64,000 nt of DNA from Candidatus Latescibacterota bacterium (GTDB taxonomy: Bacteria; Latescibacterota; UBA2968; UBA8231), in the NCBI GenBank assembly GCA_963422735.1, contig OY730476.1, positions 2,016,001 to 2,080,000 of the forward strand. The letters are read 5' to 3'. Shown piece by piece: positions 20,294 through 41,332 of this stretch; position 1 is the first letter of the stretch; each line of letters opens with the position of its first letter. Below the pieces are notes generated by a model. That model was not told where the DNA came from and did no database searches. It was given only the letters and a program-made list of their open reading frames with translations. A program made the position numbers and the translations under genes.

Positions 20294-20322
20294 TTGACAC
20301 TCCGCCACCCTTCCGCTAGCTT
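20294..20322 (+). promoter_or_regulatory. Putative sigma70 promoter
   Basis: TTGACA-17 nt-TAGCTT, 10 nt before ATG 20333. Confidence 0.6.
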
Positions 20323-20332
20323 TTTACAACCC

Positions 20333-21259
20333 ATGCCCAAGAGCCTTCTTCCGCTTACATTGGCCCTGTTGCTGACCGGGGCTGCACACGCCGCCTCGCG
20401 CTACGCTGGCGAGTTCCTCGGCTTGGGCGCGGGTGCCCGCTCTGCGGCCTTGGGCAGCGCCTATGTGGCCCTTGCAGACGACGCCACCGCGGGCTATTGG
20501 AATGCGGCCGGCCTATCCGCCCTCAGCAGTCGCCAAGCGCTCCTGACGCATGCTGAACACTTCTCTGGCCTCATTCAGCGCGATTTTGTCGCCGTCGCCC
20601 GGCCGGGCCGCCTCTTGCACGGTATGGCCCTGAGCTTAGTGCGCATGGGCATTGGCGACATCCATTTTACCGAACTGCCAGATCCCCTCCAGCCTCCAAG
20701 CACCGACAACCGTCCTCGCATCGCCTCGACCGAGCAAAGCGTGGATTACGCCCTGTATCTGTCGGGCAGTCGCCGACTCGGTGCGCGCCTATCCCTCGGG
20801 CTAAGCACCAAGGCCATTTACCGCCACGTCGCCTCCATCAACGCCTACGGCTTCGGCCTAGACCTAGGCGCACGCTACCAATTGAGCGACCAAATCGCGA
20901 TAGCGGCGAACGTGCGCGACATTACCACCACGCCCATCGTCTGGAATACGGACAGCACCGACCGCATTCAGCCCTCGCTGCTGTTGGGCGTAGCGTACGC
21001 CATACCCATGGCCAGGGGCCAAACCACCGCCCTCCTAGCCACCCATTCCGGCGGCGACACTGCGACCGCCGACGTCCCGCTCAACGCCGGGCTAGAATAC
21101 CGCCACCATTATATCGCCCTGCGGGCCGGGCTAGAGGAAGGCCGCCAGTCCTTTGGGCTAGGGCTTACCCCCCACCGCAACCTCGATCTCGACCTCGCCT
21201 ATTTGCAGCACGATGCGCTCGAAGCAACCTACCAGTTGTCCGCCAGCTTCTGCTTCTGA
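20333..21259 (+). CDS. PorV/PorQ-family outer-membrane beta-barrel
   Basis: Signal peptide (AHA); FLGLGAGARSAALGSAYVALADDATAGYWNAAGL is the PorV/FadL-like N-terminal motif; terminal Phe. Confidence 0.8.
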   Translation: MPKSLLPLTLALLLTGAAHAASRYAGEFLGLGAGARSAALGSAYVALADDATAGYWNAAGLSALSSRQALLTHAEHFSGLIQRDFVAVARPGRLLHGMALSLVRMGIGDIHFTELPDPLQPPSTDNRPRIASTEQSVDYALYLSGSRRLGARLSLGLSTKAIYRHVASINAYGFGLDLGARYQLSDQIAIAANVRDITTTPIVWNTDSTDRIQPSLLLGVAYAIPMARGQTTALLATHSGGDTATADVPLNAGLEYRHHYIALRAGLEEGRQSFGLGLTPHRNLDLDLAYLQHDALEATYQLSASFCF

Positions 21260-26170: not shown

Positions 26171-27760
26171 TCACCGGACCAGCATCAACCGGCGCGTCCG
26201 CGTCTCTCCACCCGCCTTCAACACGGCCCAATACGCCCCGCTGGCCGCGCGTTCACCGCTCCAGCGCGCCAAGTGCTTCCCGGCCGCGAGCCGCTCCGCC
26301 ACCAAAAGGGCCGTGCGCTGGCCCAAAGCATTGTATATCGCCAGTTCGATGTCCGCTTCCCTTGCCAAGCGAAAGGGTAGGTTCACCGCGCTATTGGCCG
26401 GGTTCGGATACGCCGGTGCCAAGTCACTGGCCCCGGCCCGCTCCTCGGCCTGCATGGCTACAACCGTGGGTGTAACATACCGGGCCGCGAGGACAAAATT
26501 TCCGCCCGTCGGCGAGGCTCTGCCGACGATAACCGTTGCGCTATCTACGTCCGTGGCCTGCACCTGCCCTGCGTTGTCCTCGCTAAGTTCCATCGCTACC
26601 AGCTCGCCGTGCTGGCCGCGCATGGCGTACACCCACACGGCATAGTGCCCCTCGGCCGCCCCGACGAAATCAACGGCTACATCGCCTTCCGAGCGAATGA
26701 TCACATTAGCCGCGCCCCATTGATCTCTGACCTCGCCAGCCAGTGCCGCGAAGGGGATCTCGGGCGCGGCAATCGCGGCTGCACGGCGGCCGCGCAGGGC
26801 CTCGTACCCAGCCGCATAGTTGGCCGCGATCCACAAGCGCCAAGCACCCGCGTAGTTCTCGATCCAGTCTTGACTTTTGAAAGCGTCGTCAATGCCCAAA
26901 ATGCCGTTGCGCGGCTCGGCGACGATTTGGCGAATCAGCCCCGGGCCATAGCGCTCGGCCAAAAATGAGGCGAACAAATAGGTCTTGCCGTAGCTTGCTG
27001 ACTCAAACGTCCAACTCGTTAGATTGCGGCTGGGATCCTCAAGAAAACTCGGCACCATGCGTGGATTGGCTTCGGGGAAACCCACCAACTCTTCGGCGTA
27101 TCCAGAAAGCCCTTCGTCAATCCATGCCTCCTCGTCGGAATCGCGGCCCCAGTGAATCAGGTGCTGGAATTCGTGCGCTAAAGTCGCGTGAGCGAGATAG
27201 GCACTGAAGACCAGCTTGTGCGCGTCGAGGTAAATCGTATCGCGCCGCAAGTCGGGCTGCGATACCCGGTCATACAGCGTACCGTCAAAATAGCCGACTA
27301 TCTCCTCGCCGGGCAGGTCCAAAATCAGGATAAAGATGCGGGGATCGCCGTCCTCATCAACAGGCTCGCCAAAGGCATCAACCGCTATTTCAAATATCCC
27401 GCGCTCGGGATCGGCCGGGGTCTCCGCGTCGAAAAGCGTACCCAGCTTATCCACATCCTCCTGGGCCGCTTTAATGTCCCACTGGCTCTCCTCGACGAAG
27501 ATATAGCAATGCGTCCCCTTGTAGCGGCAGGTGGCCCACTTGAGCACGGGTTCGGTCGGAGCGTAAAAGGCGAGTTGGGTCCCCACTTCAATGGGGCCCA
27601 GTTCTTGACTTGCCCCGACTGCCTTGGCGGCCGGCGTGGGGAAGGACACGCGGTGCTGATCGAGCCAACGCGTCCCGCAGATCCGCCCTTCGGCTGCGGC
27701 CGCCAACGGCAACGAGAGCATCCACGTGGCCAAGGCCACCCGCGAGAAAAAGCAGGCCAT
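26171..27760 (-). CDS. Secreted zinc metalloprotease (M30/M6-like) with T9SS type A C-terminal domain
   Basis: Signal peptide; ICGT pro-motif; AHEFQHLIH...WIDEGLS; C-terminal YPNP...IYNALGQ...SGAYW...RRLMLVR; TGATG coupling to upstream gene. Confidence 0.82.
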   Translation of the reverse strand: MACFFSRVALATWMLSLPLAAAAEGRICGTRWLDQHRVSFPTPAAKAVGASQELGPIEVGTQLAFYAPTEPVLKWATCRYKGTHCYIFVEESQWDIKAAQEDVDKLGTLFDAETPADPERGIFEIAVDAFGEPVDEDGDPRIFILILDLPGEEIVGYFDGTLYDRVSQPDLRRDTIYLDAHKLVFSAYLAHATLAHEFQHLIHWGRDSDEEAWIDEGLSGYAEELVGFPEANPRMVPSFLEDPSRNLTSWTFESASYGKTYLFASFLAERYGPGLIRQIVAEPRNGILGIDDAFKSQDWIENYAGAWRLWIAANYAAGYEALRGRRAAAIAAPEIPFAALAGEVRDQWGAANVIIRSEGDVAVDFVGAAEGHYAVWVYAMRGQHGELVAMELSEDNAGQVQATDVDSATVIVGRASPTGGNFVLAARYVTPTVVAMQAEERAGASDLAPAYPNPANSAVNLPFRLAREADIELAIYNALGQRTALLVAERLAAGKHLARWSGERAASGAYWAVLKAGGETRTRRLMLVR

Positions 27761-28365
27761 CAGTAGAAATGCCGCACGAGGAAGAAAGCCGCTCCCGCAG
27801 GACCCACCACCACCTTGGGCGCGAAGCTGGTCTGAGCTTGATCCGCGCCAGCCACCCGCGCCGCATGGATAGCGGCCACGAGGTGATTGACAATTACCAA
27901 CCCCGTCATATAGAGCGCCTGCCGATGCGCGTGCTGGCTCGCATTGCGCAAACCTCGATAGCGCTGGCGCGACTCGCCGCGATCCCATTCCCAGAAGAAG
28001 TCCGCGTCCACAGGATATAGCTCTGCCTCTGGGCCGTCCTCGTAGCGGGCAAACTGGTTGTGCTCCAGCCGGCTCGCATAAAACCCCAAGTCGTCGAAAT
28101 ACTCGCGCCCCTTGCCCTCTGGCCGCGCACCCGCGCGTTCCGCCGCATGCGCCCGGTACTGATCGCGGCGCACTTGGCCCAGCCACTCAAAGCCCCAATA
28201 TCCGCCCCAAAGCGCCAACTCAGCGGCCAAAAAGCCACCGCCGCCGCTTTGGGCGTATTTCTGCCCCCAACCGGGCACCAGCAAGGAGCGCCAAAATGCC
28301 CCTTGGGCCTTCCCGGCCTCAGCCACGCCGGGCAGTAGCAAAACTAACGCAATCCATCGCCACAT
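27760..28365 (-). CDS. DUF5683-like exported/membrane protein
   Basis: Signal peptide; AFWRSLLVPGWGQ.Y; C-terminal NHLVAAIHAA. Confidence 0.7.
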   Translation of the reverse strand: MWRWIALVLLLPGVAEAGKAQGAFWRSLLVPGWGQKYAQSGGGGFLAAELALWGGYWGFEWLGQVRRDQYRAHAAERAGARPEGKGREYFDDLGFYASRLEHNQFARYEDGPEAELYPVDADFFWEWDRGESRQRYRGLRNASQHAHRQALYMTGLVIVNHLVAAIHAARVAGADQAQTSFAPKVVVGPAGAAFFLVRHFY

Positions 28366-28369
28366 CGGC

Positions 28370-29308
28370 TCAATCCAATGGCTTGTACGCCACGAGCATG
28401 GGCACGCGCGCCCGCACCCAAGGCTGCATGACCAACGCAAAGCGCGTCCGCCGCCGCAGGGCTGCTTCGTCTGCGCCCGCAGCGCGTACGCGCGCCACCC
28501 GCGCTGCATCAATGGCACTGATAACGTGGTTTATTAGAATGACTCCGCTTACCGTGGAGGCTCGCTTGAGAAAGCGATTGCTCTCGTCGCGTTGGTCTTC
28601 GTAACGGGGTCGTCGCGCGGAATGGAAATTTTCGACTGAATCGACTTCAGTAGGCTTGGCGGGATTGCCAGTACTGCGCCTCACTAGATCGGTCCAACCG
28701 GCTGCGAATTGGTCATATTTGCCAATCAACTCGTAGTATTGCTGGATCTGGCTCGGCGCACATTCGCCAAAAGCCGCACTACCCAGCCCACTTGATTTCT
28801 GCTGCTGCATCCACTCGTTTCGCGCCGGAATGTACACTTCGACGACTTGGCTGACTTGGCTACTACACGGCAACGCATGCGTGATTGACGAATTGTTCGA
28901 AATCGCCGAGCCTCGCCAAGCCAAATAGTTGTGCGGATTCCAGTGTTCGTCGGCTACTGCCCGGAACTCTTCCTCCACGTCGTTGCCCTTGCCCTTCCAA
29001 GCCACCCATAAGCCCACCAGTGCGGCTTCGGCCCCTAAGAACACCAACCCCCGCTTCTTCGACCCCGCATACCACTCGCCCAACCCCGGTACCAGCGCGG
29101 AAAGCAAAAACGCCCGCTTTGACGACTTGCCCTTGTGCGCCTCTGTGCGCGGCATCGGTGCCGGCTCAGGATCAGCACCACCTTCCACCGCCTGCAATCC
29201 CACCAAGAACGCCTGCCCCTCTTCACTCAAAATACTCGGCAATCCCTCAGCCCAGACGCTGGCGGCGGTTAGCGCGGCAACCAGCAGCGCGAGCCCTGTC
29301 CTCGTCAT
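28370..29308 (-). CDS. DUF5683-like exported/membrane protein (paralogue)
   Basis: Signal peptide; KRAFLLSALVPGLGEWY; NHVISAIDAA; AGGAG RBS. Confidence 0.72.
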   Translation of the reverse strand: MTRTGLALLVAALTAASVWAEGLPSILSEEGQAFLVGLQAVEGGADPEPAPMPRTEAHKGKSSKRAFLLSALVPGLGEWYAGSKKRGLVFLGAEAALVGLWVAWKGKGNDVEEEFRAVADEHWNPHNYLAWRGSAISNNSSITHALPCSSQVSQVVEVYIPARNEWMQQQKSSGLGSAAFGECAPSQIQQYYELIGKYDQFAAGWTDLVRRSTGNPAKPTEVDSVENFHSARRPRYEDQRDESNRFLKRASTVSGVILINHVISAIDAARVARVRAAGADEAALRRRTRFALVMQPWVRARVPMLVAYKPLD

Positions 29309-29391
29309 AAGAATCTCCTTTCTATTGCGGCAGCGCCCAACAGCGCGACCGGCTATTACACTCTAGTTGCCTTCACATTCGAGATGATTTC

Positions 29392-30270
29392 TCAACACAT
29401 TAGGGAAAGCGAGCGGGGAAGCGACTTGCCGTGACTTTTTTCGCCGGTTTTCCCGTTGTAGCTCGCCATGTACGAAAGCCCCTGGTCGTTCATGGCTTGC
29501 AGCGCGTCTGAGAACTCATCATAGCTCCCTGTGATCTCTCGTAAAGGACGTACCCTGATAGGGCGGGTCCAAGTAAATGAGGTCCTCTTTCGCAGCCTCT
29601 GCGACCACCTTGCGAAAAGCGACGTTTTTCCGGCGAGCAGCGAGTGCGCGGTGCGCTGCTTGGAGGTCCAGAACTCATTGACGAATACGGGGATGCCGTC
29701 GCATTCTTCGACGACCGTCTCCTTGTCGTAGCACCGCCATTGTTCAAGCTCGCGTTTGAACTCGTCGAGGGTCAGGCGATCACTATCGGTGAAAGGGAGT
29801 TGGCGTTCCCAGCAATTTGAGTGTTTTAGATCGATATACAGTATAGTTCCAGCGCCGAGCATTCCCCGTTCATACCAATAGCGAACAGTCGGCTCGAAGA
29901 TCTTCCATACGGGTATCTTGGAGAATTTCTCGACATCGCCGACGAATTAGCCTTCGATTTCGGACAACTTGGCCATGAAACCATCTTCGTCGAACTTACG
30001 ACCTGAACCGACCATGTAGCTGGGACAGAAATATATCTTGCTCGTTATGGATCGCACTCCCCACTTGTGACCATCTCCGTCGAGCAATCAAAACCCGCAC
30101 CTTCGCTTGGCGATAGCGTTCCTTGCAGATACGTCGTTCAAGAATGAATGAAACGTGATGTCGTCGATGAAGTATTTCCGTACTTCGCTTTGGGTAAGGT
30201 GCAAGGATTGGGCGACATTCTCCAAGTCCCACCCCAGACACCTACTTGCTCAATCTCGATCGTGCGAATT
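29392..30270 (-). pseudogene. Decayed restriction-modification islet (endonuclease-like and two methyltransferase fragments)
   Basis: Lower GC; EDLIYLDPPYQG (DPPY at 29558-29569); VFVNEFWTSKQRTAHSL; LLDGDGHKWGVRSITSKIYFCPSYMVGSGRKFDEDGF with in-frame TAA at 29947-29949 and frameshifts. Confidence 0.65.
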
Positions 30271-30297
30271 CCTCCGATCCTATACAACAGTGCATCC

Positions 30298-33200
30298 CTA
30301 CAAATACCCGAACAACACGGTAAAATACGATTTCCAACGCCCCTTATCTCGCACCTCGTCAATCCCGTAAGCCACATCCACCTGTACCCGCGCCGGCACA
30401 CTGTAATAAGAAATCAAATCAAAACGCAACTGCCCCCCCACATCCCGCAGCGGGCCGTCGCGTCCATACCGTTCGTTCCACTCGCCTATATCTCGGTCCC
30501 AAGCCTTGCCCATGCTAGCGTACACCGCGCCATACACTTTGTCGAAATATAGCTGTGCAACGCGCTTGCCCATATCCGGTAGCAGGGGAAAGCGCAGCGT
30601 CGCCGTACCCATCAGGGCCTTGCGCCCCTCAGTGCTGTAAAAAGTATAGCCCTTCATAAAACTGAGGCCGCCGAGGCGGTAGTCGAAGAAATCGCCGACC
30701 CGCGTCGTGTCGTTCACCGCGTCGCTGTCGATCCAGCCGCCGTACAGCCGTAGGCCCAAGCGGGTATTGCCGGGCATGCCGATGTACTCTTTCCAATCGA
30801 CGGTAAATTGGTTGTAAAAGAGCTTGATATACTCCTCGTCGATAAAGGACGCCTGCTCGTTAAAGCCATCTAGAAAAAAGTTGAACATCCGGTCATAGCG
30901 CGCGTAGAGCTGGCGGCCCACAGGGCTTATATCGCGGTCACGCCGCCGCGCAATCAGCTCCATCCGATAGGCCAACCCCAAGCCAAAGCCATTGAGATAG
31001 GTATAGCCAAAGGGCCTTTGCCGCTGGCGCTCAAAGCCGATGCCGCCGTCTCGGCGCGGCATAAAAGCCTCCCATTGGACACTGGCATCGTAGCGGTCGT
31101 ACGTGGCCGAGGCCGTCAGCTCCCCATGGCGTCCCAACTTGCCGCGCACCCCCACGCCGAGCTGGCTCAAGCTGTAGTTGACGGCGTTGACAATGCCCGC
31201 CCGCGCCTCCGTGCTATCGCCGCGGGCCGAGCGCCGACGCTGGTTGAATACCTCTAAAAAGAAAGTGGGACGGAATCCCTTGAACTCGTATATAGCGAAC
31301 AGATCGCGGTCGGCATTGGCCGGCGCGATGGCACCCCCGGCGAATACGCTCTGGCGATTGAGCACATCGCCAGAGGTGAGGTACGCGCCCGCTTTGAAAT
31401 GCCCTTCATCTATGGCCAGCCTCGGCAGGATCCCGGTCTTGAGAAAGTCAATGCCATACGCTTGGGGCGCACTTGGCAAAGCGGGTGCAGACGCGCCGCG
31501 CCAATCCAGCGGCATGTCTTGAAAAAACCACGCATCTTCAGCCGCCACCGGCGTCCCCTCGTCCTGTAATCGGCGAATCTCAAAGCCAGCCGCCGTATAA
31601 GCCGCAAAGACGACCTCGCCCTCCGGGCCAACCGACGGGTTGAACGCGCCACCGATGGTGTTGGTTAGCTGCCGCAGCGCGAGCGTTTCCAAGCTCAGAG
31701 CATAGATATTGAAAATGCCGCTGAAATCCGACGCGAAGACAATCTCCTCGCCATCCGCGCTCCACGCTGGGTCGCGGTCTGTGCCGGGCGTAGCAATTAC
31801 CCGCCCGGTCCGTAGGGGCAACCCTTGTGGTTGCCCTATTGGATCACCAGCCCAATCGCCATCAGTCCCCAATTCCACCACGGCGATGTCGCGCTGTCCC
31901 TCGCGCGAGATCGCAAACGCCAGCTTGCGTCCGCCGGGCGAAAAGCGCGGCGTGTAGAGCTGGGTGCCGTCCGCGAAATGGGTTAGATAGCGCAGTCCCG
32001 TGCCGTCGGCCCGCATCAGCGCCAAGTTGTTGCTAGTACCCTCGTTTTGCACGAAAACAATCCATTCGCCATCGGGCGAATAGGCCGGGTACAGCGCGCG
32101 CATACCGCGCGTCAGCCGCTTGACGCGCGGCGTCTCCGGTGCCGTGCCGCTGACCATGGTTGGCACCAACCACAGCATACCGCGCCAAAAACTGGGGCCG
32201 GCGGCAGCGGAATTCCACTCGTAGATATCCGCTTGCCGCGAACCGTATTTGTCGGCCCGGTCAATGCGCGAAAAGAGCAGCTTGCGTCCATCCGGCGACC
32301 AATCCACGGTCGAAGCCGCCGCTGGGAAGGCTGCGACTTCCTCCTCGCCTGTAGCGAGGTCACGCACTACCAAGCCGTGCGGCCCGTGGTGCCGCTTGCG
32401 CGTCGATAGATACGCCAATTTCTCGCCGTTAGGTGCAACCTGCGGCCGCAGGTTGGAAAAGCCGACATCCACGATCTGCTCGCCCTCGCGCAGCGGCCCC
32501 AACGCCGCTACCTGTGCCCGATAGCCCTGCCGCAAGGACTCGATCCACTCGTCGTACAGCGCGTCCGCGCTCTTGCCCAAAACCTTTTTGTACGCCCCAT
32601 CAATGGCGAGGGTGTGCCACTGCGACGCGGCTTGGTACAGCGCGGCGATTTTTTCTTCGCCGTACGTCTCGGCGATGTAGCGCACCAAGCCAAAGCCGTG
32701 GTCGTACACGTATTCGTTGCCAAAGCCCTGCTTGCCAAAGACGCCCATCTGGTCGAAGGATAGCTGCTCATCTGCAAGCACTAAGGATCGGAGCACCATG
32801 TCGCGATTGGCGTCCCAGCGGTCGTGAGCCGTAGTCGCAGTCCCGTACTGGGCCGCGCCCTCGGCCAGCCACATCGGCACCACCGTGCCCATCACCGGAT
32901 AAGAAGCGATGACGTCTGGATAGCCAATGAGAATGTCCGGCCGATTCTTCTCCCTCTGGTAGCCAAAGTACTGCAAGTAGAGCGCGGGGACGCGCTGCAC
33001 GCCTTTGCGCGCAGCACCCAGCGAAACGATGTGGGCAAATTCGTGGGTTATTACGTTGCGCAGCCAGTCTGAACTGCCGCGCAAGTCGAAGTCGTGGTCG
33101 AGCGACGTGGCCCAAATCTCAATGGTGTCTTGATAGAAAAAAGCCGCGCCATTGGCGTAATCGTCGTGGTCTTTGAGCACGATCCGCACGCGCCCGTCGG

Positions 33201-33426
33201 GTGCGTACCCATACAGTTCGGTAATAGGTGCGTACGCGGCTTCGGCAATGTGCGCGGCCCGCGCCGCCGCCCTCTCTAGCCCCTCGTGGTAAAAAATGCG
33301 GAAGTGCTCGGTCTCTACCACCTGCCACGCCAGCTCCGGGTGGTTTTGGGCGAGGGATGAGCTCGCCCAGCTAATCAGCAAACAAAATGCACACAGGCCG
33401 GCCAGCAGAGTCGTCAGTTTCCCCAT
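30298..33426 (-). CDS. Outer-membrane protein: gluzincin (peptidase MA-like) domain + PD40/TolB-like propeller + Omp85/BamA-like barrel
   Basis: Signal peptide; THEFAH...WLAEG; repeated WSPDG/YSPDG/FSPGG/WSADG; C-terminal amphipathic strands, LGGLSFMKGY loop, ending YFTVLFGYL. Confidence 0.8.
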   Translation of the reverse strand: MGKLTTLLAGLCAFCLLISWASSSLAQNHPELAWQVVETEHFRIFYHEGLERAAARAAHIAEAAYAPITELYGYAPDGRVRIVLKDHDDYANGAAFFYQDTIEIWATSLDHDFDLRGSSDWLRNVITHEFAHIVSLGAARKGVQRVPALYLQYFGYQREKNRPDILIGYPDVIASYPVMGTVVPMWLAEGAAQYGTATTAHDRWDANRDMVLRSLVLADEQLSFDQMGVFGKQGFGNEYVYDHGFGLVRYIAETYGEEKIAALYQAASQWHTLAIDGAYKKVLGKSADALYDEWIESLRQGYRAQVAALGPLREGEQIVDVGFSNLRPQVAPNGEKLAYLSTRKRHHGPHGLVVRDLATGEEEVAAFPAAASTVDWSPDGRKLLFSRIDRADKYGSRQADIYEWNSAAAGPSFWRGMLWLVPTMVSGTAPETPRVKRLTRGMRALYPAYSPDGEWIVFVQNEGTSNNLALMRADGTGLRYLTHFADGTQLYTPRFSPGGRKLAFAISREGQRDIAVVELGTDGDWAGDPIGQPQGLPLRTGRVIATPGTDRDPAWSADGEEIVFASDFSGIFNIYALSLETLALRQLTNTIGGAFNPSVGPEGEVVFAAYTAAGFEIRRLQDEGTPVAAEDAWFFQDMPLDWRGASAPALPSAPQAYGIDFLKTGILPRLAIDEGHFKAGAYLTSGDVLNRQSVFAGGAIAPANADRDLFAIYEFKGFRPTFFLEVFNQRRRSARGDSTEARAGIVNAVNYSLSQLGVGVRGKLGRHGELTASATYDRYDASVQWEAFMPRRDGGIGFERQRQRPFGYTYLNGFGLGLAYRMELIARRRDRDISPVGRQLYARYDRMFNFFLDGFNEQASFIDEEYIKLFYNQFTVDWKEYIGMPGNTRLGLRLYGGWIDSDAVNDTTRVGDFFDYRLGGLSFMKGYTFYSTEGRKALMGTATLRFPLLPDMGKRVAQLYFDKVYGAVYASMGKAWDRDIGEWNERYGRDGPLRDVGGQLRFDLISYYSVPARVQVDVAYGIDEVRDKGRWKSYFTVLFGYL

Positions 33427-33525
33427 AGAAGAGTTCTCCTCAGCTCGGAATACAATGATGCCTCTGTTACTAAGGCGATCTCACTGCTGCAAAGGCACTC
33501 CCCTCGCAATACCCACTTGGCGACC
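33389..33525. repeat. Copy 1 of duplicated leader/signal-peptide segment
   Basis: Aligns with 37354-37504; 24-nt identical core ATCTCACTGCTGCAAAGGCACTCC. Confidence 0.9.
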
Positions 33526-33543
33526 AAGCAAAACGCCAACCCC

Positions 33544-36339
33544 TCACTGGCTCACCGCCATTTTGATCACGGCTTCTCCTCGCCGTCCGTCGTCGCCGTG
33601 CGCGATCAATCGGCATAGATACAGGCCGCTCGCATAGCCTTCCACCGACCAAGTAATTTCGTGCTCACCGGCTTCCAAGCCGTTGCTTCGGTGCTGCCAA
33701 ACGCGCCCGCCCAACGCACCGAACACCTCCAATTCGATGCGCCCGGCTGCGCTCAGCGCAAAGCGCAAATGCGCATCCTCGCCGGGGCCGACTGGATTGG
33801 GATAGCAATAGACCCGGTCTAGCAAGGACGCCTCGGGCTTTACAACGGGACGGCCAGCTACCAGCGCAACCCGCGACCCAGCCCCATCGGCACCGGCCTG
33901 AGGCCAATGAGCCGGCCCCCCGGCGTACCGCGCCGCCACCCTCTGCAGATCCCACGCATATATGGCCGTGCCATCCAAGGCTGCTAACGCCAAGCGGCCA
34001 TCGCTGCCTAAGTCCAATACCACCGGCGACGCCGTCGGAGGAGCGGCCATTAGCAGGGGAAAGCCCGCCAAGAGACGCCCATCGTCTTCTATACCAAAAA
34101 TTCCGCTGTGGCCAGCGACGAATATCTCCTGCTTGCCATCGGCATCCACGTCGCACAGCATCGGCTCGAAAACGAGATCGCCGACCTCGGCAAAGCGCGG
34201 CAAGGAGGTGGGAAAGTCGGCTTGGCGCAATCCGTCGGCGCGCAAGGCGTGTATCGTTCCACCCCGCGCAAGCAAAACCACCTCCAGCAGGCCATCGCCG
34301 TCCAAATCGCCCAGAACCGGCGGTGCGGCTAGCGAATCGCCTAACTCGACAGCATGAGACCCGATCTCGACTTGGCCGCTGGCTGTGGCGAAGACCCACT
34401 CGACTTGGCCGTCACCATCCAAATCGCTCGCGGCTGGGGGCAACGAGGCTGCAGCCACCGGTGGCCTTTGCTCCTTTAACTGGCCGCTTATGGCATCTAC
34501 CACGTAGAGCTGTTCCGCTCCGGCGAGCAGCAGCGCGGCCTCCGTGCCCGTGCTGAAACGCGCGTCCGATGGCACCTCGTTCAGCGCGAGCCGCCACAGC
34601 GGTTGGTCGGCCCCGGCGTCCCACGCGCTGACTTCTGCGTCGCGCCATAAAAAAATCGCGAGTCGGCCATCGCCGTCGCCGTCCCCAGCAGCCAGCAACC
34701 GTGCCCCTGGTACTCTCCACGGTGCCACACCATCTCCGGTTGCATAGCCGACCTCACCTCCGGCCTCAAAGAGCAACTCTTCTACTCCATCGCCGTCCAA
34801 GTCCGCGGCTTGTAGCCGGCCGTCGCCCGGCAAATCCCGCGGCCAGCCCGGGCGCGCACGTCCAAAGCGTATGGCCACCTGCATGGTATCGCCGGGAGCG
34901 GAAAGCACTTCGATCTCAATGCCGGTCTCCCACTCTCGGTTGCTGCGCGAGTCAGGTTGAGTCGCCGGGCCGAACAGCGTTTGTCCGCCGATAAAGAACG
35001 GGTCGTCGGGCCACCCCTCGACTTGTCGCTCCCACGCAAGAAACGGATCGCCAATGTCGCGGTACCCATCGGCCTCTTCCAAGGCAATGCTCTGCCAATG
35101 GGCCTGATTGTTCGCGGCACTGGGATCCGCAGCGCGGGCCATCACGCCTTCGTCTATGTGCCATATCAGCATCCCCGACCCTGGGACAAAGGCGTCGTAT
35201 TCCTCCATCGCCACCCACACGCCTTCCTCTATAGTGACCTGATCGCGGTCAATCCACACCACCTCTTCGTCCTCGCCCTCCACAACACCGCGCTGCCCGC
35301 GCTGCTGTCTGTTCTCCAGCAAGAAGTACTCGCGCGCGTCAATGGGTATGCGCACGGCCTTGGGGAGGTCGCCGCTGCGGTCGGTGGCTAGCAGCGATAG
35401 TACAGTGTCGCGCCGCACCACCACCGGCTCGATCCACCCTAGCTGCATCTTGCTCCACGCCATAGGATGCGGCGGTGCGAAGCCAATTCCCTCGAGGCTG
35501 TCCGTCCGCACGTAGCCCGAAGCGTTGACCCCCACGTCCATCAGACTCCAGCTGCCTAGGGCTGGCAGGCCGTCGACGAAATTGGACAACCCAGGCAGGC
35601 CCAACTGGTGGCCAAAGAACTTGGCCAGCAAGCCATTGAGGCCGACCCGGCCGTTGAGGCTAGGCGACTCTGGCAAGATCCACGCCTGATCGATCTGTGC
35701 TCCGCCCAAGGTTAGCGGGCCGCCGTTAAAGAGCGCAAAATCGCTCTCGGCTAGGAAGACCGAGCGAATGTCGTTCAGCCCGCCGGTCTCGTAGCCAACT
35801 CCGGCGTGGAACACGAGGAAGCTATTAAATTCGTCCAAGCGCGGGCCATCGGGATCGGCCAGCGCGGCAGCAAGAGCATCGCGCACCAGTTCAATCCACT
35901 TCGCGCCAATTTCCTCAGTCGTGCGTCCGTTGCCGTAGTGGAGCATGGGTTGGGGAAGCGCGTATGCCTGCCGCGAGGCGCGGGGGAACACCTCGGCGGA
36001 GATCGCCACCCGGCCGTCGGAAACGACCTCGTAATAGCGCGCCAACGCGGTCAAATGCCGCTCGAAGTAAGCGCGGTCGTGCGGCGGCACATCGTAGGGA
36101 AGCGCGTACTCCTCAGCCGCTTCCTCTGCCGAGCGCAGATCAAACGCGCCGACGCCAGTCGTCGTCAACTCATCTGGCCTTTCGCGCGGAAAATCCACGC
36201 GCAAGACCAAGATTCGCCACTCGGCATCGGCCGTAGTGGCCGCCGCCAACAGTAGTGAGAAGCAGAAGCCTAAGAGGAACAAGGGGGCCAAATCGCATCG
36301 TCGCCGCGCAGCAACAGGACCCGTGTCCGATTGGAACAT
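33544..36339 (-). CDS. Immune inhibitor A (M6)-like domain + FG-GAP repeats + T9SS type A CTD; HExxH degenerate
   Basis: ILVLRVDF, VFHAG, KFFGHQLGLP, WSLMD, KMQLGW, YFLLENR, LIWHID; DLDGDG repeats; YPNP...SGLYL CTD. Confidence 0.82.
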   Translation of the reverse strand: MFQSDTGPVAARRRCDLAPLFLLGFCFSLLLAAATTADAEWRILVLRVDFPRERPDELTTTGVGAFDLRSAEEAAEEYALPYDVPPHDRAYFERHLTALARYYEVVSDGRVAISAEVFPRASRQAYALPQPMLHYGNGRTTEEIGAKWIELVRDALAAALADPDGPRLDEFNSFLVFHAGVGYETGGLNDIRSVFLAESDFALFNGGPLTLGGAQIDQAWILPESPSLNGRVGLNGLLAKFFGHQLGLPGLSNFVDGLPALGSWSLMDVGVNASGYVRTDSLEGIGFAPPHPMAWSKMQLGWIEPVVVRRDTVLSLLATDRSGDLPKAVRIPIDAREYFLLENRQQRGQRGVVEGEDEEVVWIDRDQVTIEEGVWVAMEEYDAFVPGSGMLIWHIDEGVMARAADPSAANNQAHWQSIALEEADGYRDIGDPFLAWERQVEGWPDDPFFIGGQTLFGPATQPDSRSNREWETGIEIEVLSAPGDTMQVAIRFGRARPGWPRDLPGDGRLQAADLDGDGVEELLFEAGGEVGYATGDGVAPWRVPGARLLAAGDGDGDGRLAIFLWRDAEVSAWDAGADQPLWRLALNEVPSDARFSTGTEAALLLAGAEQLYVVDAISGQLKEQRPPVAAASLPPAASDLDGDGQVEWVFATASGQVEIGSHAVELGDSLAAPPVLGDLDGDGLLEVVLLARGGTIHALRADGLRQADFPTSLPRFAEVGDLVFEPMLCDVDADGKQEIFVAGHSGIFGIEDDGRLLAGFPLLMAAPPTASPVVLDLGSDGRLALAALDGTAIYAWDLQRVAARYAGGPAHWPQAGADGAGSRVALVAGRPVVKPEASLLDRVYCYPNPVGPGEDAHLRFALSAAGRIELEVFGALGGRVWQHRSNGLEAGEHEITWSVEGYASGLYLCRLIAHGDDGRRGEAVIKMAVSQ

Positions 36340-36341
36340 CC

Positions 36342-37394
36342 TCAGAAAATGAGATTCAGGGAAAACCGCGTATTGTCCTCCAGCGGCGTTATCTTACTGG
36401 CATCGACATACGCCACATCGAATTGGAAGCGGTTGTACTTTAGGCCGACGCCAAAATTCCGGGTCGCCAACTCGCCGTCGGTGTCCCGCGAAAGGCCCGC
36501 ACGCAACGCGATGAAAGCCTCGTCTTCGCGGGCGGAAAGCCCGTATCGGTATTCGCCGCCCACGTGCAAATCCATCTCCTTGAACTCATTGCTCGCGCTC
36601 TCGTCAGCCCACGCCTTGACCAAGTTGCTGACAAAAGATCCATCGGCGATTAGGGGCTTGTACAAGTCAAAGGAGAGCAGCACGTCGTTGTATTGGGTAT
36701 CCATCACCTCGTAGGCCACTCCGACGACGATGTGCTGGGGCAGCGAATCGGCCTGTTCGGCGTCTATGTAGGCGATCTTTGGGCCTAGGTTGCGTAGGGC
36801 CGCGCCCAAGCTGAGGCTCGGCGTGGCCTTCCACAAAAAACCCAAATCCGCGGCAAAGCTGTTGCCCACGCCCCGACCCCGCTCAATGCCGGCCCCCTGA
36901 TCGGCCAAATTGCTGCGGATGAACTTCAAGCCGATGCCAGCAGACGCATAGCTGCTAAGGTGCGCCCCGTAGGCCGCAGACATGGCCACATCGTAACTAC
37001 GGAAGGTGCCTTGGTGGTTGCCGCGCTCGTCGGTGCGGATCTGCTCGCCTAGGTTTAGCAGCGCGACGTTGAGACCGATATTGCCCCAGCCCTCCACGGG
37101 CATGGAATAGGCCAAAAACTCGTAGGATAAGTCGTCGGCCAGCCCGGGCAGCCACTTGCTGTGAGTGAAGTGGAGCTTTTTCTTACTCTGCCCGACGAGG
37201 GCAGCCGGATTGAAGTAGCTCGCCGTGGCGTCGTCGGCCACAGCCACGTACGACTCGCCCATGCCAATGGCGCGGGCACCCGGCTCGATCAGCAAAAAGA
37301 GCACGGCGGCGCGGCTCTCGGGCGTAGCCCGGATCTCATCGGGCAATGCGCCCGCGCACAGGCCGGCCAGCAGCAGGGTCGTCAGTTTCCTCAT
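36342..37394 (-). CDS. porV: Type IX secretion shuttle PorV-like beta-barrel
   Basis: FLLIEPGARAIGMGE..VAVADD, HSKWLPGLADDL, KFIRSNL, NLGPKIAY, PLEDNTRFSL; directly downstream of porU. Confidence 0.88.
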   Translation of the reverse strand: MRKLTTLLLAGLCAGALPDEIRATPESRAAVLFLLIEPGARAIGMGESYVAVADDATASYFNPAALVGQSKKKLHFTHSKWLPGLADDLSYEFLAYSMPVEGWGNIGLNVALLNLGEQIRTDERGNHQGTFRSYDVAMSAAYGAHLSSYASAGIGLKFIRSNLADQGAGIERGRGVGNSFAADLGFLWKATPSLSLGAALRNLGPKIAYIDAEQADSLPQHIVVGVAYEVMDTQYNDVLLSFDLYKPLIADGSFVSNLVKAWADESASNEFKEMDLHVGGEYRYGLSAREDEAFIALRAGLSRDTDGELATRNFGVGLKYNRFQFDVAYVDASKITPLEDNTRFSLNLIF

Positions 37395-37504
37395 AGCGGA
37401 GTCCTCCTCAGCTAAGAATAAGAATATAAGAATGATGCCTCCTAAGTACTAAGGCAATCTCACTGCTGCAAAGGCACTCCTCTCGCAACATTTACTTGGC
37501 GACC
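37354..37504. repeat. Copy 2 of duplicated leader/signal-peptide segment
   Basis: Spans porU last codons, intergenic leader and first ~13 porV codons; aligns with 33389-33525. Confidence 0.9.
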
Positions 37505-40500
37505 TGCAAGACAGCGCGGCGTGCGACCGTAGTACCGCTTTCCCGCTCGGCTTCTATTCGGTATAGATACGCGCCACTGGCCAAGCCCGTCGGCGGCATC
37601 CAAGGCACCTGGTTGTAGCCGGTGTGTGCCTGTCCGTCTAGCTGGTCTATCAGCCGACCAGCCAGCGAAAAAACCTCTATCTGCACAGTGCGCATGTCGT
37701 TTTCTAGCTCATACGTGAAGTAGCCGCTATCGCGCATGGGGTTCGGATAAAATAGGACCTTGGCAAGGCCCGCGTCGCCTTCGTCGTCTCCGACCGAGAC
37801 CGACACCGTCGCACGCGACGAATTGTTGAAGTTATCCCAAGCCTTCAGGCGGATCTCGTGTTTGCCCGCTTCCAATTCGGGCAGGGGAAATTCAATGACC
37901 CCCTGCCGGTAGTCCCCACCCTGCACACTGTACATATCCGTCAATGTGAAGAGCTCGCCGTCGATGGCCAGTTCGATTTCGTGCCCGGTCTCCCCGGTGA
38001 TGTTGATGCCGCTGGGATCCGCAATTGAGGCCAACAGCACCGTTTGCCGCGGAATCTTGGTGCCTTTGGCCCCCTCGAAGCGCAGGGAAATTTCCGGCCC
38101 TTCCACGTCCGCCTCCACGCCTTTGGCCGTGCCCGCCAGCACCAGTCCGTCCGCCTTGCCAAAAGCCTCGGGACTGTCATCGCTCCAGACGTAGGCGCTG
38201 ATGCGGCCGTTCTTCCCCCCATAGGTAATGTCTTTAGGGATCCGGAATGCGGCACTAAAGCGGCCCTCGGCTACTGGAAAGCGACCGCGAAAGATGGGGG
38301 CACCGGTCTGCTGGTAGGTAAATCCCTCCAACTCACTTTCTTCACTCGAATCAAATGCCTGCAACCACACTTGTCCCTCATAGTCGGTGGCCGGCGCATC
38401 AGCTGCGTCGAGGACCTGGCCGGCGATGGCCACTTCGCCGAGGGCACGGAGCGAATCGGCCACATCGATCTGCACCTGAAAGCGCGGCATGGCCAAGCGC
38501 GTCGCCGGGTCGCCAAAGAGCGAATAGCGCTGAATGTTGCGGAACGTTGTGGCACCGCTGGGGTCATACTGCGGCAGCAATAATTGCTTGGCCTCGGCGA
38601 GGGCCAGCCCAATCGGCACGTGCTCCCGTCCGGTGTGGTACATCTGCCGATAGAACTGGTTGGCCAACTCGACATTGCTGTCGTGATACCCTATCCGGGT
38701 CGCGCAAATCATGCCGATCACGCCCCCGTCTTCCTTCTTCAGAAGTGCCTCGGGGATGGAAATGCGCACTGGATCGTCGAACACCCCCACTTGACTCGCA
38801 GCCGTAAAAAACAAGGGCAGGCGACCGCCGTTGTCGATCTTGTCCAAATCGCGGGAAAGAAAAAACATGCGCTCGTGGGCCAGCACGTAAAAGCTGCCGT
38901 GCCCCACATAGGTCACAATGAGCGCACCCTTGTTGAAGAGCCGGATGAACTCGTCCCGAGCTCGTGGCTTCTCCAGCCCCTCTAGAGGGAATTGGGCGAT
39001 GTAGAGCTTGGTCAAGTCCGACGTCTCGGGCAAAACGTGCCGGGCCATGTATTCGCTATCCCTGATAAACATCGACTCTACCCTGCTCGGCTTATCTCGA
39101 TTGTTCAAGTCGTCCGAGGCCAGCACTATTCGGCTCTGCCAAGGCCCCAATTCGGGCGCGCGGTCGTAGGCGATGATTTTGTCGGCGAGCGCGTCGGCCT
39201 CGGCCGCGGTCTGCACTGGCAGCCGACCAATGGCCATGTCGGGAAACAAATCGTTGCCCACCACGCGCGTGTACCACTCATCGTACGTGCTGTCGCCGTC
39301 TTGAAAGGCCGGAATCCAATTGCCCTGACTGAGGGCCGAATTGTTCTTGTAGTCGTACGAGCCATCGCCGAACAACGTCACGAACATGGGCGCGGGATCC
39401 CAGTGCTCGGCCGCATAGGAGAGAAAATTGCGGATCGCCGCTGGGTCTAAAAGCCCACCGGAAAACTCGTCGTAGATGTCTTGTACGTCGATGGCCGCGG
39501 TCCGCAGGGGCGGGCCGAAGCGGTCGTCTGCAGCCCGCCATTGTGCCAAGCGCTCGGCGGCGGCGCGGAATTCGCGGTGGTAAATCGCCACCCAATCGGC
39601 CCCCCAAGCTCCGGTCGTCAAATGGCCGAGCAAGTCGAGTTCGATCCGCATCGGTCGCTTCCAAGTCGCCGGGCCGCCAACTGCGTACTGACGCGGCACA
39701 TCCCCGGGCTGATCCTGAAAAATTACAGTCCCAGTTTGCGCGTCGTACGCGAAGTCCACGATCTCGGCCAAGCCAGCAGAGACCTCAAAGACGCGCGGCT
39801 GCTCGTCGGCAAAACCAGCGAGGCGGAATTGAGTGGTGCCCGTCAGCGGATAGGTGAAGAGCAACTCGCCGCGCTCGGCGACAAAGCCTCGGCTGTATTC
39901 TACTTCGTACCAGTCGAAGCGGGCCGGATTACCGGAGTGAAAAAGCCCCAAGTAGTTCAGCCCCTCCTGCGCCCCTAGTGCCGCCCACAGCGTATCGGAT
40001 GCAACGTATCTCCGGCTATGCGGTTGCGCTGGGATTGCAAAAGTCTCCGTTCCAATGGTCTCTTCATTCCAGCGCACTGAAAAACGCGGCCGCGTCTCAG
40101 GTATCCCGATAAAACCCAAACGCACGGCCACCGGCTCGGGTACGGCCTGCCGCACCACCACCGGGAAATTGCGGGCATTGCCGCGAAAATCCTCCCAGTA
40201 CCAGGTGTAGCCGGACTTGATGCTAAAAAGCTGGATGAGAACGAACTGTTCGGCTTCCTCGTGGACCCGCACCCGATAGCTCGTGGGCTGCTGCGGGTCG
40301 GACGCGACTATGGCACCGCTCCTCTGCTCGGCTCGTCGCCCCTCGACTCCACCGCCAAAACCCAGCCAGTACGCATTCTCTCGCGTGTAGAGGTTGTGAC
40401 GATATTGAAACAAACCGCTAGCTTGGACGTAGTCCCAGCGGCTGACCGGCTCGGCCCAAAACAAGACGAAGTCGTCCGCGTCCAGACGACCATCGCCCCC

Positions 40501-41238
40501 GTCTTCTACGACCAAGCCCACTTCTGGCATGGCTTGGGGTGGATCCACCTTGCTAATGGACAAGGCTTTGCCACCTCCGTAATGCAGGCGCAAACTCGCC
40601 GGATCGATGTCGCCGAGCGATACCCCGGCGGCCTCTAAGTCGGCACCCGATATCCTGTACAGCCCCTCTTCCGAGACGAAGATCCGCAGCCAAGTCCCTC
40701 TCGGCAACGCGGCCTTGCGCGCCGGCCGCCGCTTAGGTGGCAATCGCCAGTTCCTCGCTTGCTCGGGATTGACGAGCATCCCTCGATAGAATGCTTCTCC
40801 CCAAGGGTCGGCAACGCGGGTGCCGCCACCGCCAGTCACGTGCAGATCAACGACGATGCGATCGTACAGGGTCCGCGTCCCGTCCGCTTCGACGCGCGGA
40901 GCAAACGCCACCGGAACGACGCGTTGGCGCCGCGCAAAGCCGCTCTCGCCGAGGAAGGCCGGCTCGGGTGTGGGCGCGTCGTCTTCAGCAGCGCGATCCG
41001 TTCGCGCCACGCGGGCTTCGACCAGCTCCAAGCGAACCCGTCCATCAATTGGGACGCCGATCAAGGCACCGCGCCCCTGCTCCAGTTCTTGGCCCTCGGG
41101 GAGCCAAACCAACCGCAGGCGCTGTGGCGTCTGTTCGCTGACGCGCAATTCCGCCATGGCCGCACTCCCGCAAAAAAGCGCAAGCGCCCAAAAGCAGCAT
41201 TTGAATCTCATAAATTTGGTATAGGTGGAATTGATCAT
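37492..41238 (-). CDS. porU: Type IX secretion sortase PorU-like (C25 gingipain clan) with Ser at the catalytic Cys position
   Basis: IYDEFSGG..DP.AIR.FL, LFGDGSYD.K, IGRLP, YVGHG, TAASQVGVFDDP, LFGDPA, D.SGIN, LKAWDNFNNSS, CTD YPNP; start may be 41211. Confidence 0.9.
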   Translation of the reverse strand: MINSTYTKFMRFKCCFWALALFCGSAAMAELRVSEQTPQRLRLVWLPEGQELEQGRGALIGVPIDGRVRLELVEARVARTDRAAEDDAPTPEPAFLGESGFARRQRVVPVAFAPRVEADGTRTLYDRIVVDLHVTGGGGTRVADPWGEAFYRGMLVNPEQARNWRLPPKRRPARKAALPRGTWLRIFVSEEGLYRISGADLEAAGVSLGDIDPASLRLHYGGGKALSISKVDPPQAMPEVGLVVEDGGDGRLDADDFVLFWAEPVSRWDYVQASGLFQYRHNLYTRENAYWLGFGGGVEGRRAEQRSGAIVASDPQQPTSYRVRVHEEAEQFVLIQLFSIKSGYTWYWEDFRGNARNFPVVVRQAVPEPVAVRLGFIGIPETRPRFSVRWNEETIGTETFAIPAQPHSRRYVASDTLWAALGAQEGLNYLGLFHSGNPARFDWYEVEYSRGFVAERGELLFTYPLTGTTQFRLAGFADEQPRVFEVSAGLAEIVDFAYDAQTGTVIFQDQPGDVPRQYAVGGPATWKRPMRIELDLLGHLTTGAWGADWVAIYHREFRAAAERLAQWRAADDRFGPPLRTAAIDVQDIYDEFSGGLLDPAAIRNFLSYAAEHWDPAPMFVTLFGDGSYDYKNNSALSQGNWIPAFQDGDSTYDEWYTRVVGNDLFPDMAIGRLPVQTAAEADALADKIIAYDRAPELGPWQSRIVLASDDLNNRDKPSRVESMFIRDSEYMARHVLPETSDLTKLYIAQFPLEGLEKPRARDEFIRLFNKGALIVTYVGHGSFYVLAHERMFFLSRDLDKIDNGGRLPLFFTAASQVGVFDDPVRISIPEALLKKEDGGVIGMICATRIGYHDSNVELANQFYRQMYHTGREHVPIGLALAEAKQLLLPQYDPSGATTFRNIQRYSLFGDPATRLAMPRFQVQIDVADSLRALGEVAIAGQVLDAADAPATDYEGQVWLQAFDSSEESELEGFTYQQTGAPIFRGRFPVAEGRFSAAFRIPKDITYGGKNGRISAYVWSDDSPEAFGKADGLVLAGTAKGVEADVEGPEISLRFEGAKGTKIPRQTVLLASIADPSGINITGETGHEIELAIDGELFTLTDMYSVQGGDYRQGVIEFPLPELEAGKHEIRLKAWDNFNNSSRATVSVSVGDDEGDAGLAKVLFYPNPMRDSGYFTYELENDMRTVQIEVFSLAGRLIDQLDGQAHTGYNQVPWMPPTGLASGAYLYRIEAERESGTTVARRAVLQVAK

Positions 41239-41263
41239 GTGGTCGCGGCGATTGGCACTTTTA

Positions 41264-41332
41264 AGGTTATTTCAAGCTCCTTTTTTGTCAAGGGCATCCC
41301 ACCTTGACTTATCGGATCAGCGCCTCTATGTT
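41264..41332. promoter_or_regulatory. Back-to-back sigma70 promoters for the porU operon (-) and rpmB (+)
   Basis: Minus: TTGACA (41291-41286)-16 nt-TAACCT; plus: TTGACT (41304-41309)-17 nt-TATGTT. Confidence 0.6.

Follow-up and report, generated by a model that had tools for sequence, protein, structure and literature searches.

What is the role of the seven-gene row that carries porU and porV, two type IX secretion system (T9SS) genes, in a bacterium of the phylum Latescibacterota? The row lies in a stretch of 64,000 nucleotides from Candidatus Latescibacterota bacterium (contig OY730476.1 of assembly GCA_963422735.1), called the window below, to which all coordinates without a prefix refer. 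The original prediction, made from the letters of this stretch, had read the row as a lineage-specific T9SS-like machine behind one promoter. Judged by sequence, porU is orthologous to the known T9SS sortase and porV to the known shuttle and anchor barrel, and they are joined in a conserved gene row with an M6-like protein (M6i), a fusion of peptidase, propeller and Omp85-type barrel, and a DUF5683-like protein (D1), to which the genes D2 and MP have been added in this phylum. On balance we think it probable that the row is the outer-membrane, post-translocon part of the T9SS, in a form belonging to non-classical lineages of the Fibrobacteres-Chlorobi-Bacteroidetes (FCB) group, and that the module serves the traffic of cargo after SprA.

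The seven genes, exported or membrane proteins as originally described, are co-oriented on the minus strand and occupy positions 26171-41238. M6i, D1, D2, MP and 'barrel protein' are working names. The row reads as follows:

porU, 37492..41238, minus strand, 1248 aa: T9SS sortase/C-terminal domain (CTD) peptidase homologue with its own type A CTD
porV, 36342..37394, minus strand, 350 aa: porV-family outer-membrane barrel, with a GAGGAGG ribosome-binding site
M6i, 33544..36339, minus strand, 931 aa: signal peptide, M6 (InhA)-like domain lacking HExxH, repeats of the FG-GAP type, type A CTD
barrel protein, 30298..33426, minus strand, 1042 aa: signal peptide, MA-clan zinc peptidase, TolB-like propeller, Omp85/TamA-like barrel
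gap, 29309..30297, minus strand, 989 nt: frameshifted DNA methyltransferase remnant (orf156, 29392-29862), outside the module
D1, 28370..29308, minus strand, 312 aa: DUF5683-like all-helical membrane protein with a signal peptide
D2, 27760..28365, minus strand, 201 aa: shorter D1 paralogue
MP, 26171..27760, minus strand, 529 aa: exported zinc peptidase of the MA type, with HEFQH ... WIDEG motifs and a type A CTD

The MP start given here agrees with the relatives: it is the ATG at 27760, and what comes next resembles a signal peptide; the 671-aa open reading frame (ORF) called by program begins too early.

We compared the row with 32 close loci, 25 of them titled Latescibacterota or Latescibacteria and 7 Gemmatimonadetes or Gemmatimonadota, the phylum names of loci being labels on metagenome-assembled genomes (MAGs). 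All seven genes were present in the same order in 28 of the 32. Three of the exceptions (L024, L032 and L035) end at contig ends, and the fourth (L038) is without the genes D1 to MP within 10 kb. Under other phylum labels, the order porU-porV-M6i-barrel-D1 was found in an Ignavibacteriae locus (L049), porV-M6i-barrel-D1 in a Cloacimonadota locus (L052), M6i-barrel-D1 in a Bacteroidota MAG (L050) and barrel-D1-D2 in a Delongbacteria locus (L051); the genes past D1 in these four loci are otherwise unrelated. In two of them M6i and the barrel gene are separated by an additional ORF of 219 aa (L049:9254-9913 and L050:699-1358), with only a faint CarboxypepD_reg match.

The survey was then widened to 61 genomes of the same phylum (40 of high quality) and to 41 genomes of the phylum of G062, whose locus L050 bears the label Bacteroidota (the Bacteroidota sample below). 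A barrel orthologue was called strong at E <= 1e-70, and genes were called near when within 10 kb. In the own-phylum sample, the barrel gene was detected in 56/61 genomes (39/40 of the high-quality ones), SprA in 55/61 and PorU over its cut-off in 38/61, and PorU lay within 10 kb of the barrel gene in at least 21 of these 38. A strong barrel orthologue was found in 21 of the 41 Bacteroidota genomes; PorU exceeded its cut-off in 20 of these 21 carriers, and in 15 it was near the barrel gene on the same contig. An M6i-like ORF stood directly upstream of the barrel gene in all 12 loci that were fetched. The original prediction had named, as the outcome that would speak against it, a standard T9SS carrier whose extra genes are not syntenic with porU and porV in any relative; synteny was found in the close loci and in both samples. 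The barrel gene also persists in two sister families of the same class, f2 and f3, where it accompanies SprA in 19/19 genomes. Three loci of these families read porV-M6i-barrel-D1-D2-MP, porV-M6i-barrel-D1 and M6i-ankyrin gene-barrel-D1-D2. The ankyrin-repeat gene of the last, in a PorU-less relative, encodes 592 aa (L075:9271-11049). By homology and gene order, the core porV-M6i-barrel-D1 is a widespread T9SS-linked module carrying at least five phylum labels, and the term lineage-specific has to be given up for it. Only D2, the CTD peptidase MP and the Ser form of PorU described below have a narrower distribution.

The genome, a single 4.95-Mb contig estimated to be 95% complete, was searched for the other parts of a T9SS. 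The earlier remark that sprA, gldKLMN and porZ are not in the window is correct for the window, and for gldKLMN it extends, by profile searches, to the whole genome; SprA and a PorZ-like gene are encoded elsewhere. SprA is a 2120-aa ORF at C1:2394708-2401070 that scores 610.6 bits against TIGR04189 (cut-off 200). Its gene stands head to head with lptF/lptG, the lipopolysaccharide (LPS) export permease genes (G000:C1:2388000-2406000). The PorZ-like protein (735 aa) scores 31.5 bits against PF21544 (PorZ_N; cut-off 27) and 91 bits against Reg_prop. The genome further holds one PorU, 50 further CTD matches and at least 7 PorV/PorQ-family genes over the family cut-off. PorV/PorQ-family genes were located at G000:C1:4243003-4244703 and in five other places, one tandem pair being read as a 648-aa frame.

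GldL, GldM and GldN gave no match in the profile search of this 95% complete genome, in which divergent forms are possible, and the search for GldK returned FGE-domain matches only, at most 65 bits for a cut-off of 350. GldM did not exceed its cut-off in any of the 61 own-phylum genomes. As controls of the models, GldL and GldM were positive together in the same 9 of the 41 Bacteroidota genomes and GldN was positive in G087. The strong barrel orthologue was absent from all 9 GldL/GldM-positive genomes, and neither GldL nor GldM exceeded its cut-off in any of the 21 carriers, a split that tracks deep lineages with non-independent kin and that we therefore regard as a pattern without the weight of a test. 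One module carrier of the Bacteroidota sample, G088, reaches 24.0 bits with GldL_N, at the cut-off. It possesses a divergent row (G088:C186:4000-20000) with a gldL-like gene, a weakly gldM-like one, an unknown gene and one for a 660-aa FGE-domain protein, in an order unlike gldKLMN. When the four proteins of this row were compared with the present genome using phmmer, only FGE domains and an ExbB-like ORF (E 0.47) were recovered. The ExbB-like ORF adjoins two small ORFs that are ExbD-like judging by layout. As a probe in the 41 and 61 genomes, the gldM-like protein of G088 matched only itself, hence it is an uninformative probe.

The PorU protein scores 631.9 bits against NF033707 (cut-off 420), covering model positions 2-1083 of 1095, and 266.5 bits against Peptidase_C25; its CTD is supported by a Pfam or TIGR04183 match. 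Passages of Gorasia 2015 (PMC4560394) describe for PorU a Cys/His catalytic dyad and a conserved Arg about 32 residues past the Cys. The window PorU departs from this dyad: Ser815 (codon AGT, 38794-38796) occupies the position of the catalytic Cys, while His780 and Arg848, the latter 33 residues past Ser815, are retained. An alignment in which P. gingivalis PorU is represented by 6za2 and gingipain R by 1cvr shows that the His is shared (YVGHGS in the window protein) and sets TAASQ of the window protein against TATCD / VACVN. The AGT codon is one change away from TGT. Ser was found at the catalytic position in 30/30 cluster copies of close relatives, Cys in L049. Of 20 PorU loci drawn from all over the phylum, 16 keep Cys (ten families, counting the second PorU of one f1 genome), and the other 4, from families f1 and f5, carry Ser. 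Over all the PorU loci compared (n=51; Ser 34, Cys 17), the His is conserved in 51/51 and the Arg in 50/51, and in the 34 loci of the Ser clade all three residues, Ser, His and Arg, are strictly retained. The ratio of nonsynonymous to synonymous substitution rates (dN/dS) of PorU against seven relatives is 0.18-0.23, inside the range of its neighbours (0.12-0.26). As far as alignments can tell, the Ser form fits better with a working serine enzyme than with a relic, because Ser, His and Arg are so strictly kept; the dead-scaffold reading stays alive because the sister families have lost PorU.

Two other kinds of PorU-like genes were encountered. One genome of the own family (L098; G043:C52:43659-49276) has two PorU copies, both with Ser, and a PorZ-like gene lies ~2 kb upstream of each. 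Proteins of ~1,700-2,000 aa that are PorU-like over their N-terminal 740 residues ('PorU2' type) are widespread in both phylum samples (e.g. G007:C1:64216-66381) and also occur in genomes without a canonical PorU.

The porV product scores 237.3 bits against the family model PorV_fam NF033709 (cut-off 90), 65.1 bits against Pfam PorV and 159 bits against the PorV equivalog NF033710, under its cut-off of 250. Its stop codon lies 2 nt ahead of the M6i start. M6i itself matches NF052323, the model of T9SS-dependent M6-like inactivated metalloproteases, over residues 35-493 with 277.8 bits (E 1.8e-82), missing the cut-off of 600. It also scores 82.4 bits against TIGR03296 and 45.8 bits against FG-GAP_3. 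M6i shows the features announced by the name of NF052323, namely an M6-like fold, no zinc motif and a type A CTD: KFFGH stands at the HExxH position, and HExxH is absent from every orthologue (33 loci). With the Ser of PorU, this accounts for the two altered protease folds that had been predicted. The C-termini of PorU, M6i and MP are YPNP...G.Y tails, the three type A CTDs of the original prediction; in M6i the CTD of the window copy is recognised by eye only, and its orthologues in L049 and L052 exceed the Pfam CTD cut-off. Against solved structures M6i gave by sequence only a chance match (E 0.028), with no structurally solved relative. A role of M6i as a substitute for PorZ was considered and rejected, the PorZ domain coexisting with the module in 19/21 carriers of the Bacteroidota sample and in this genome.

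NCBIfam contains a comparable trio, NF052323, NF052324 (PorU2) and NF052325 (PorV2), which from their names and consecutive numbers we infer to describe one cassette. As in the row studied here, the names place a dead M6-like CTD protein next to PorU-like and PorV-like models. The present row differs in that M6i remains below the cut-off (277.8 versus 600) and has a different C-terminal half (FG-GAP). Its neighbours differ as well: in place of PorU2 and PorV2 there are a canonical PorU, which exceeds the NF033707 cut-off, and a member of the PorV family. The literature search found no paper on PorU2, PorV2 or the inactivated M6-like metalloprotease.

The barrel protein matches Peptidase_MA_2 (31.1 bits, gathering cut-off 32.4) and PD40. 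Its zinc site is formed by H128, E129, H132 and E189, and across 29 sequences neither HExxH nor the E downstream of it varies; the nearest relatives (85-91% identity) are from MAGs. An AlphaFold2 (AF2) model (predicted local distance difference test, pLDDT, 77.5; predicted template modelling score, pTM, 0.77) divides the protein into a peptidase (~30-310), a propeller (~315-620) and a barrel (~665-1039). Foldseek relates the propeller to TolB (2w8b, E 3.6e-10) and the barrel to that of TamA (8us4, E 3.1e-7, TM 0.59), and no POTRA domain is visible in the AF2 model. PF01103 is found on relatives, which are named BamA/TamA family, and the window protein itself is without a match to it. The predicted arrangement, in which a TolB-like propeller takes the N-terminal place of POTRA before an Omp85-type barrel, is that of the 'WD40-Omp85' subfamily of the Omp85/TpsB superfamily, which passages of Heinz & Lithgow 2014 (PMC4104836) catalogue without a function. 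Unlike the subfamily as it appears in those passages, whose 'Metallo' class is PF00149, the present protein has an intact MA-clan zinc peptidase ahead of the propeller, and its gene belongs to a conserved T9SS row.

On its downstream side, the barrel gene has D1 as a universal partner. The two window proteins D1 and D2, paralogues of each other (BLASTP E 7e-9), score 13.7 and 15.9 bits with DUF5683 (PF18935), under the gathering cut-off of 26.7, so that the DUF5683 likeness announced by the original prediction is weak for the window copies; the D1 orthologue of L049 passes with 27.7 bits, and in the nearest Atlas clusters 46% and 25% of the members carry DUF5683. Like this uncharacterised Bacteroidota family, D1 and D2 share an S..PG.GQ.Y start and an N-H..A.DA end; unlike it, D1 is about twice as long, its inserted domain bearing an invariant QQYYE..GKY.Q motif. 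In the alignment of D1 the invariant motifs are S..PG.G..Y, QQYYE..GKY.Q..GW.D and NH..(S)A.DA. Its AF2 model is all-alpha with two long helices (pLDDT 73). Foldseek retrieved no match below E 0.28 in the PDB for D1, and its homologue search returned close, unnamed relatives only. D2 is present in Latescibacterota-type loci and in L051. In 5/5 classical GldM-positive genomes, a single DUF5683 gene lies away from porU. The only functional mention of DUF5683 found is a listing in the P. gingivalis vesicle proteome.

In most D1 orthologues beyond the close relatives, the C-terminal strand has an aromatic residue at its end; in those from other phyla the strand is alternately hydrophobic and its last residue is F or W. 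The window D1 ends in ...AYKPLD. Such an aromatic-ended strand resembles the C-terminal signal of outer-membrane barrel proteins to which Omp85 proteins bind. Because of this resemblance, a prediction was run for a complex of barrel domain 620-1042 with D1 55-312; its scores, 0.38, 0.02 and 0.00, are uninformative in either direction.

The last gene product, MP, exceeds the CTD model TIGR04183 (29.1 bits, cut-off 23) and remains under the cut-offs of NF045524 (39.4 bits) and Peptidase_MA_2 (16.0 bits, gathering cut-off 32.4). Across 28 loci MP conserves HEFQH and WIDEG, the motifs that supply its HExxH and its Glu ligand. MP is a probable T9SS cargo. Its origin as a recent copy of the peptidase domain of the barrel protein was discarded, the likeness being marginal (E 0.04) and confined to the surroundings of the WxxEG motif.

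Several junctions of -1 to 4 nt had been noted in the original prediction, and 3 of the 6 are that short, porV/M6i (2 nt), D1/D2 (4 nt) and D2/MP (-1 nt, the MP start overlapping the D2 stop); the others measure 97 nt (porU/porV), 117 nt (M6i/barrel) and 989 nt (barrel/D1). The remnant in the barrel/D1 gap (orf156) carries FWTSKQR and, in a different frame, DPPY-type motifs, which we take to be DNA methyltransferase motifs; it has no Pfam match. Because in relatives it varies from about 70 nt to about 3.5 kb, the gap appears to be a hot spot for insertions within the row. Consensus scans revealed no excess of promoter-like sites (sigma-70 types only; 4 versus 4.2 in shuffled sequences) or of terminator-like sites (18 versus 16.3 in shuffles). 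With neither in excess and a methyltransferase remnant in the gap, the single promoter is unproven. All seven genes are under purifying selection, with dN/dS of 0.12-0.26 against 7 relatives. The other genes of the window are housekeeping genes (ftsH, tilS, lexA, era, purD, secDF, ileS and more) with one exception, a PorV2-like paralogue. This PorV/PorQ-family barrel gene (20294-21259, plus strand) lies just upstream of era, and its best model is 'PorV2' (144.9 bits for a cut-off of 325).

How might these proteins work together? The reading that we favour extends the attachment complex as set out in passages of PMC8545088. Cargo with a CTD would leave through SprA and be bound by PorV. M6i, a CTD protein whose gene would be translationally coupled to porV, would likewise be exported and held at the surface by a PorV-family barrel, where it may be a non-catalytic binding scaffold. 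PorU would remove or transfer the CTD, in this family with a putative Ser-His(-Arg) site instead of Cys-His. The N-terminal domains of Omp85 proteins are normally periplasmic and, by analogy, the Omp85 protein would sit in the outer membrane with its zinc peptidase and propeller facing the periplasm. Along with the helical proteins D1 and D2 it may take part in this traffic, perhaps removing leftover CTDs or cargo that has stalled, or helping to build T9SS barrels. MP would most simply be a cargo enzyme.

Several observations weigh against this reading. In the 19 genomes of f2 and f3 we found no canonical PorU and no PorZ domain, matches to the PorU model reaching only 225-280 bits in ~1,900-aa proteins; these families keep the module without PorU, which excludes any role bound strictly to the sortase. 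For 6 of the 21 Bacteroidota carriers no PorU is near the barrel gene, and in one of them it lies ~860 kb away on the same contig. In the window the 989-nt gap divides the row. Three paralogues of the barrel protein are encoded elsewhere in the genome, so its architecture as such is not T9SS-specific. Finally, Ser in place of Cys in a clan CD enzyme could mean, going by the residue, that PorU is dead.

There is a small but real probability that the genes beside porU and porV belong to general envelope biogenesis and merely ride with them, the BamA/BamB-like fusion and D1/D2 ensuring assembly or quality control of outer-membrane proteins at large with no specific T9SS role. The subfamily is indeed called reminiscent of a BamA-BamB fusion in passages of Heinz & Lithgow 2014 (PMC4104836), and the BamA/TamA names of the relatives, the three paralogues, the persistence of the module without PorU and PorZ, and the housekeeping genes around the row agree with it. 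The specific barrel orthologue nevertheless stays behind porV-M6i across five phylum labels, and M6i, its constant upstream neighbour, has a T9SS CTD. Moreover, the barrel gene tracks SprA (56 and 55 of 61), and its strong orthologue occurs in 0/9 GldL/GldM-positive genomes, hence it is no universal envelope factor. A hand-over between proteases is unlikely: here a dead Ser815 PorU would be a scaffold or a departing gene, and the Omp85-anchored peptidase or MP would remove the CTDs. It could account for Ser in f1 and f5 against Cys in 16/20 PorU loci across the phylum, for f2 and f3 with SprA and the module and without PorU and PorZ, for the intact and conserved zinc sites of the barrel protein and MP, and for the addition of MP specifically in the loci of this phylum. 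It is at odds with the strict retention of Ser, His and Arg in the 34 loci of the Ser clade and with a dN/dS of PorU not above that of its neighbours, which a working Ser-His enzyme fits at least equally well. The barrel peptidase also occurs beside Cys-PorU (L049 and other families), so it is not tied to the swap, and for the N-terminal domain of an Omp85 protein one expects a periplasmic position, not the surface where CTDs are cleaved.

A broader proposal, which we hold to be decidedly unlikely, is that Latescibacterota and the other module carriers run a second type of T9SS with SprA, PorV and CTD cargo and without the GldKLMN motor and ring, in which the module gates, energises or unloads SprA and the sortase of one family has changed Cys to Ser. 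Least probable of all, and very improbable, is a separate secretion device beside the T9SS, in which the Omp85 barrel translocates or inserts M6i as in a two-partner pair or displays its own peptidase in the manner of PlpD. Surface display of an N-terminal enzyme of the PlpD type is discussed for Omp85 fusions in passages of PMC4104836. The succession of a cargo-like gene and an Omp85 barrel gene also resembles that of TpsA-TpsB pairs. The CTD of M6i and its 2-nt spacing after porV nevertheless point to export by SprA and PorV. TpsB and PlpD proteins are known to have a POTRA domain, and none is seen in the barrel model. A T9SS sorting part acting after SprA stays the probable reading.

Compared with the P. 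gingivalis attachment complex (PorU-PorV and PorZ-PorQ), the genome has adjacent PorU and PorV homologues, of which PorU bears a CTD itself, and it encodes a PorZ-like protein, more paralogues of the PorV/PorQ family and cargo with type A CTDs. It differs from it by three to five more conserved genes in the row, Ser for the Cys of PorU, a PorV under the equivalog cut-off (159 versus 250) and undetected GldK/L/M/N; the sister families, moreover, have kept the row in the absence of both PorU and PorZ. The prediction of a T9SS sorting and attachment row with extra genes outside the recognised T9SS parts is borne out. Its claim of an undescribed system holds in part: three of the parts, M6i through its NCBIfam model, WD40-Omp85 as a subfamily and DUF5683 as a family, are already catalogued, and no paper was found that links the Omp85 fusion, DUF5683 or the M6-like dead protease to porU or porV in a search that left most subscription journals uncovered. 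What is new is the Ser form of a sole PorU, the survival of the module after loss of PorU and PorZ, the D2 and MP extension and the complementary pattern with GldL/GldM.

Nearly all that is established about the T9SS comes from a few Bacteroidota, and elsewhere the system is inferred from CTD tags and scattered homologues; in excerpts of Abby 2016, TXSScan assigns a T9SS to 60/97 Bacteroidetes genomes and to no other clade. The present results indicate that the sorting genes of those phyla are accompanied by three more conserved proteins. Because the 9 GldL/GldM-positive genomes are without the module and the 21 carriers without either protein over its cut-off, they also raise the question of what drives SprA in the module carriers. 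Two uncharacterised families, the peptidase-bearing WD40-Omp85 proteins and DUF5683, gain a testable cellular context. Finally, the sole PorU of this genome, with its conserved Ser-His-Arg and under purifying selection, offers a natural test of whether a sortase-like transpeptidase needs a thiol.

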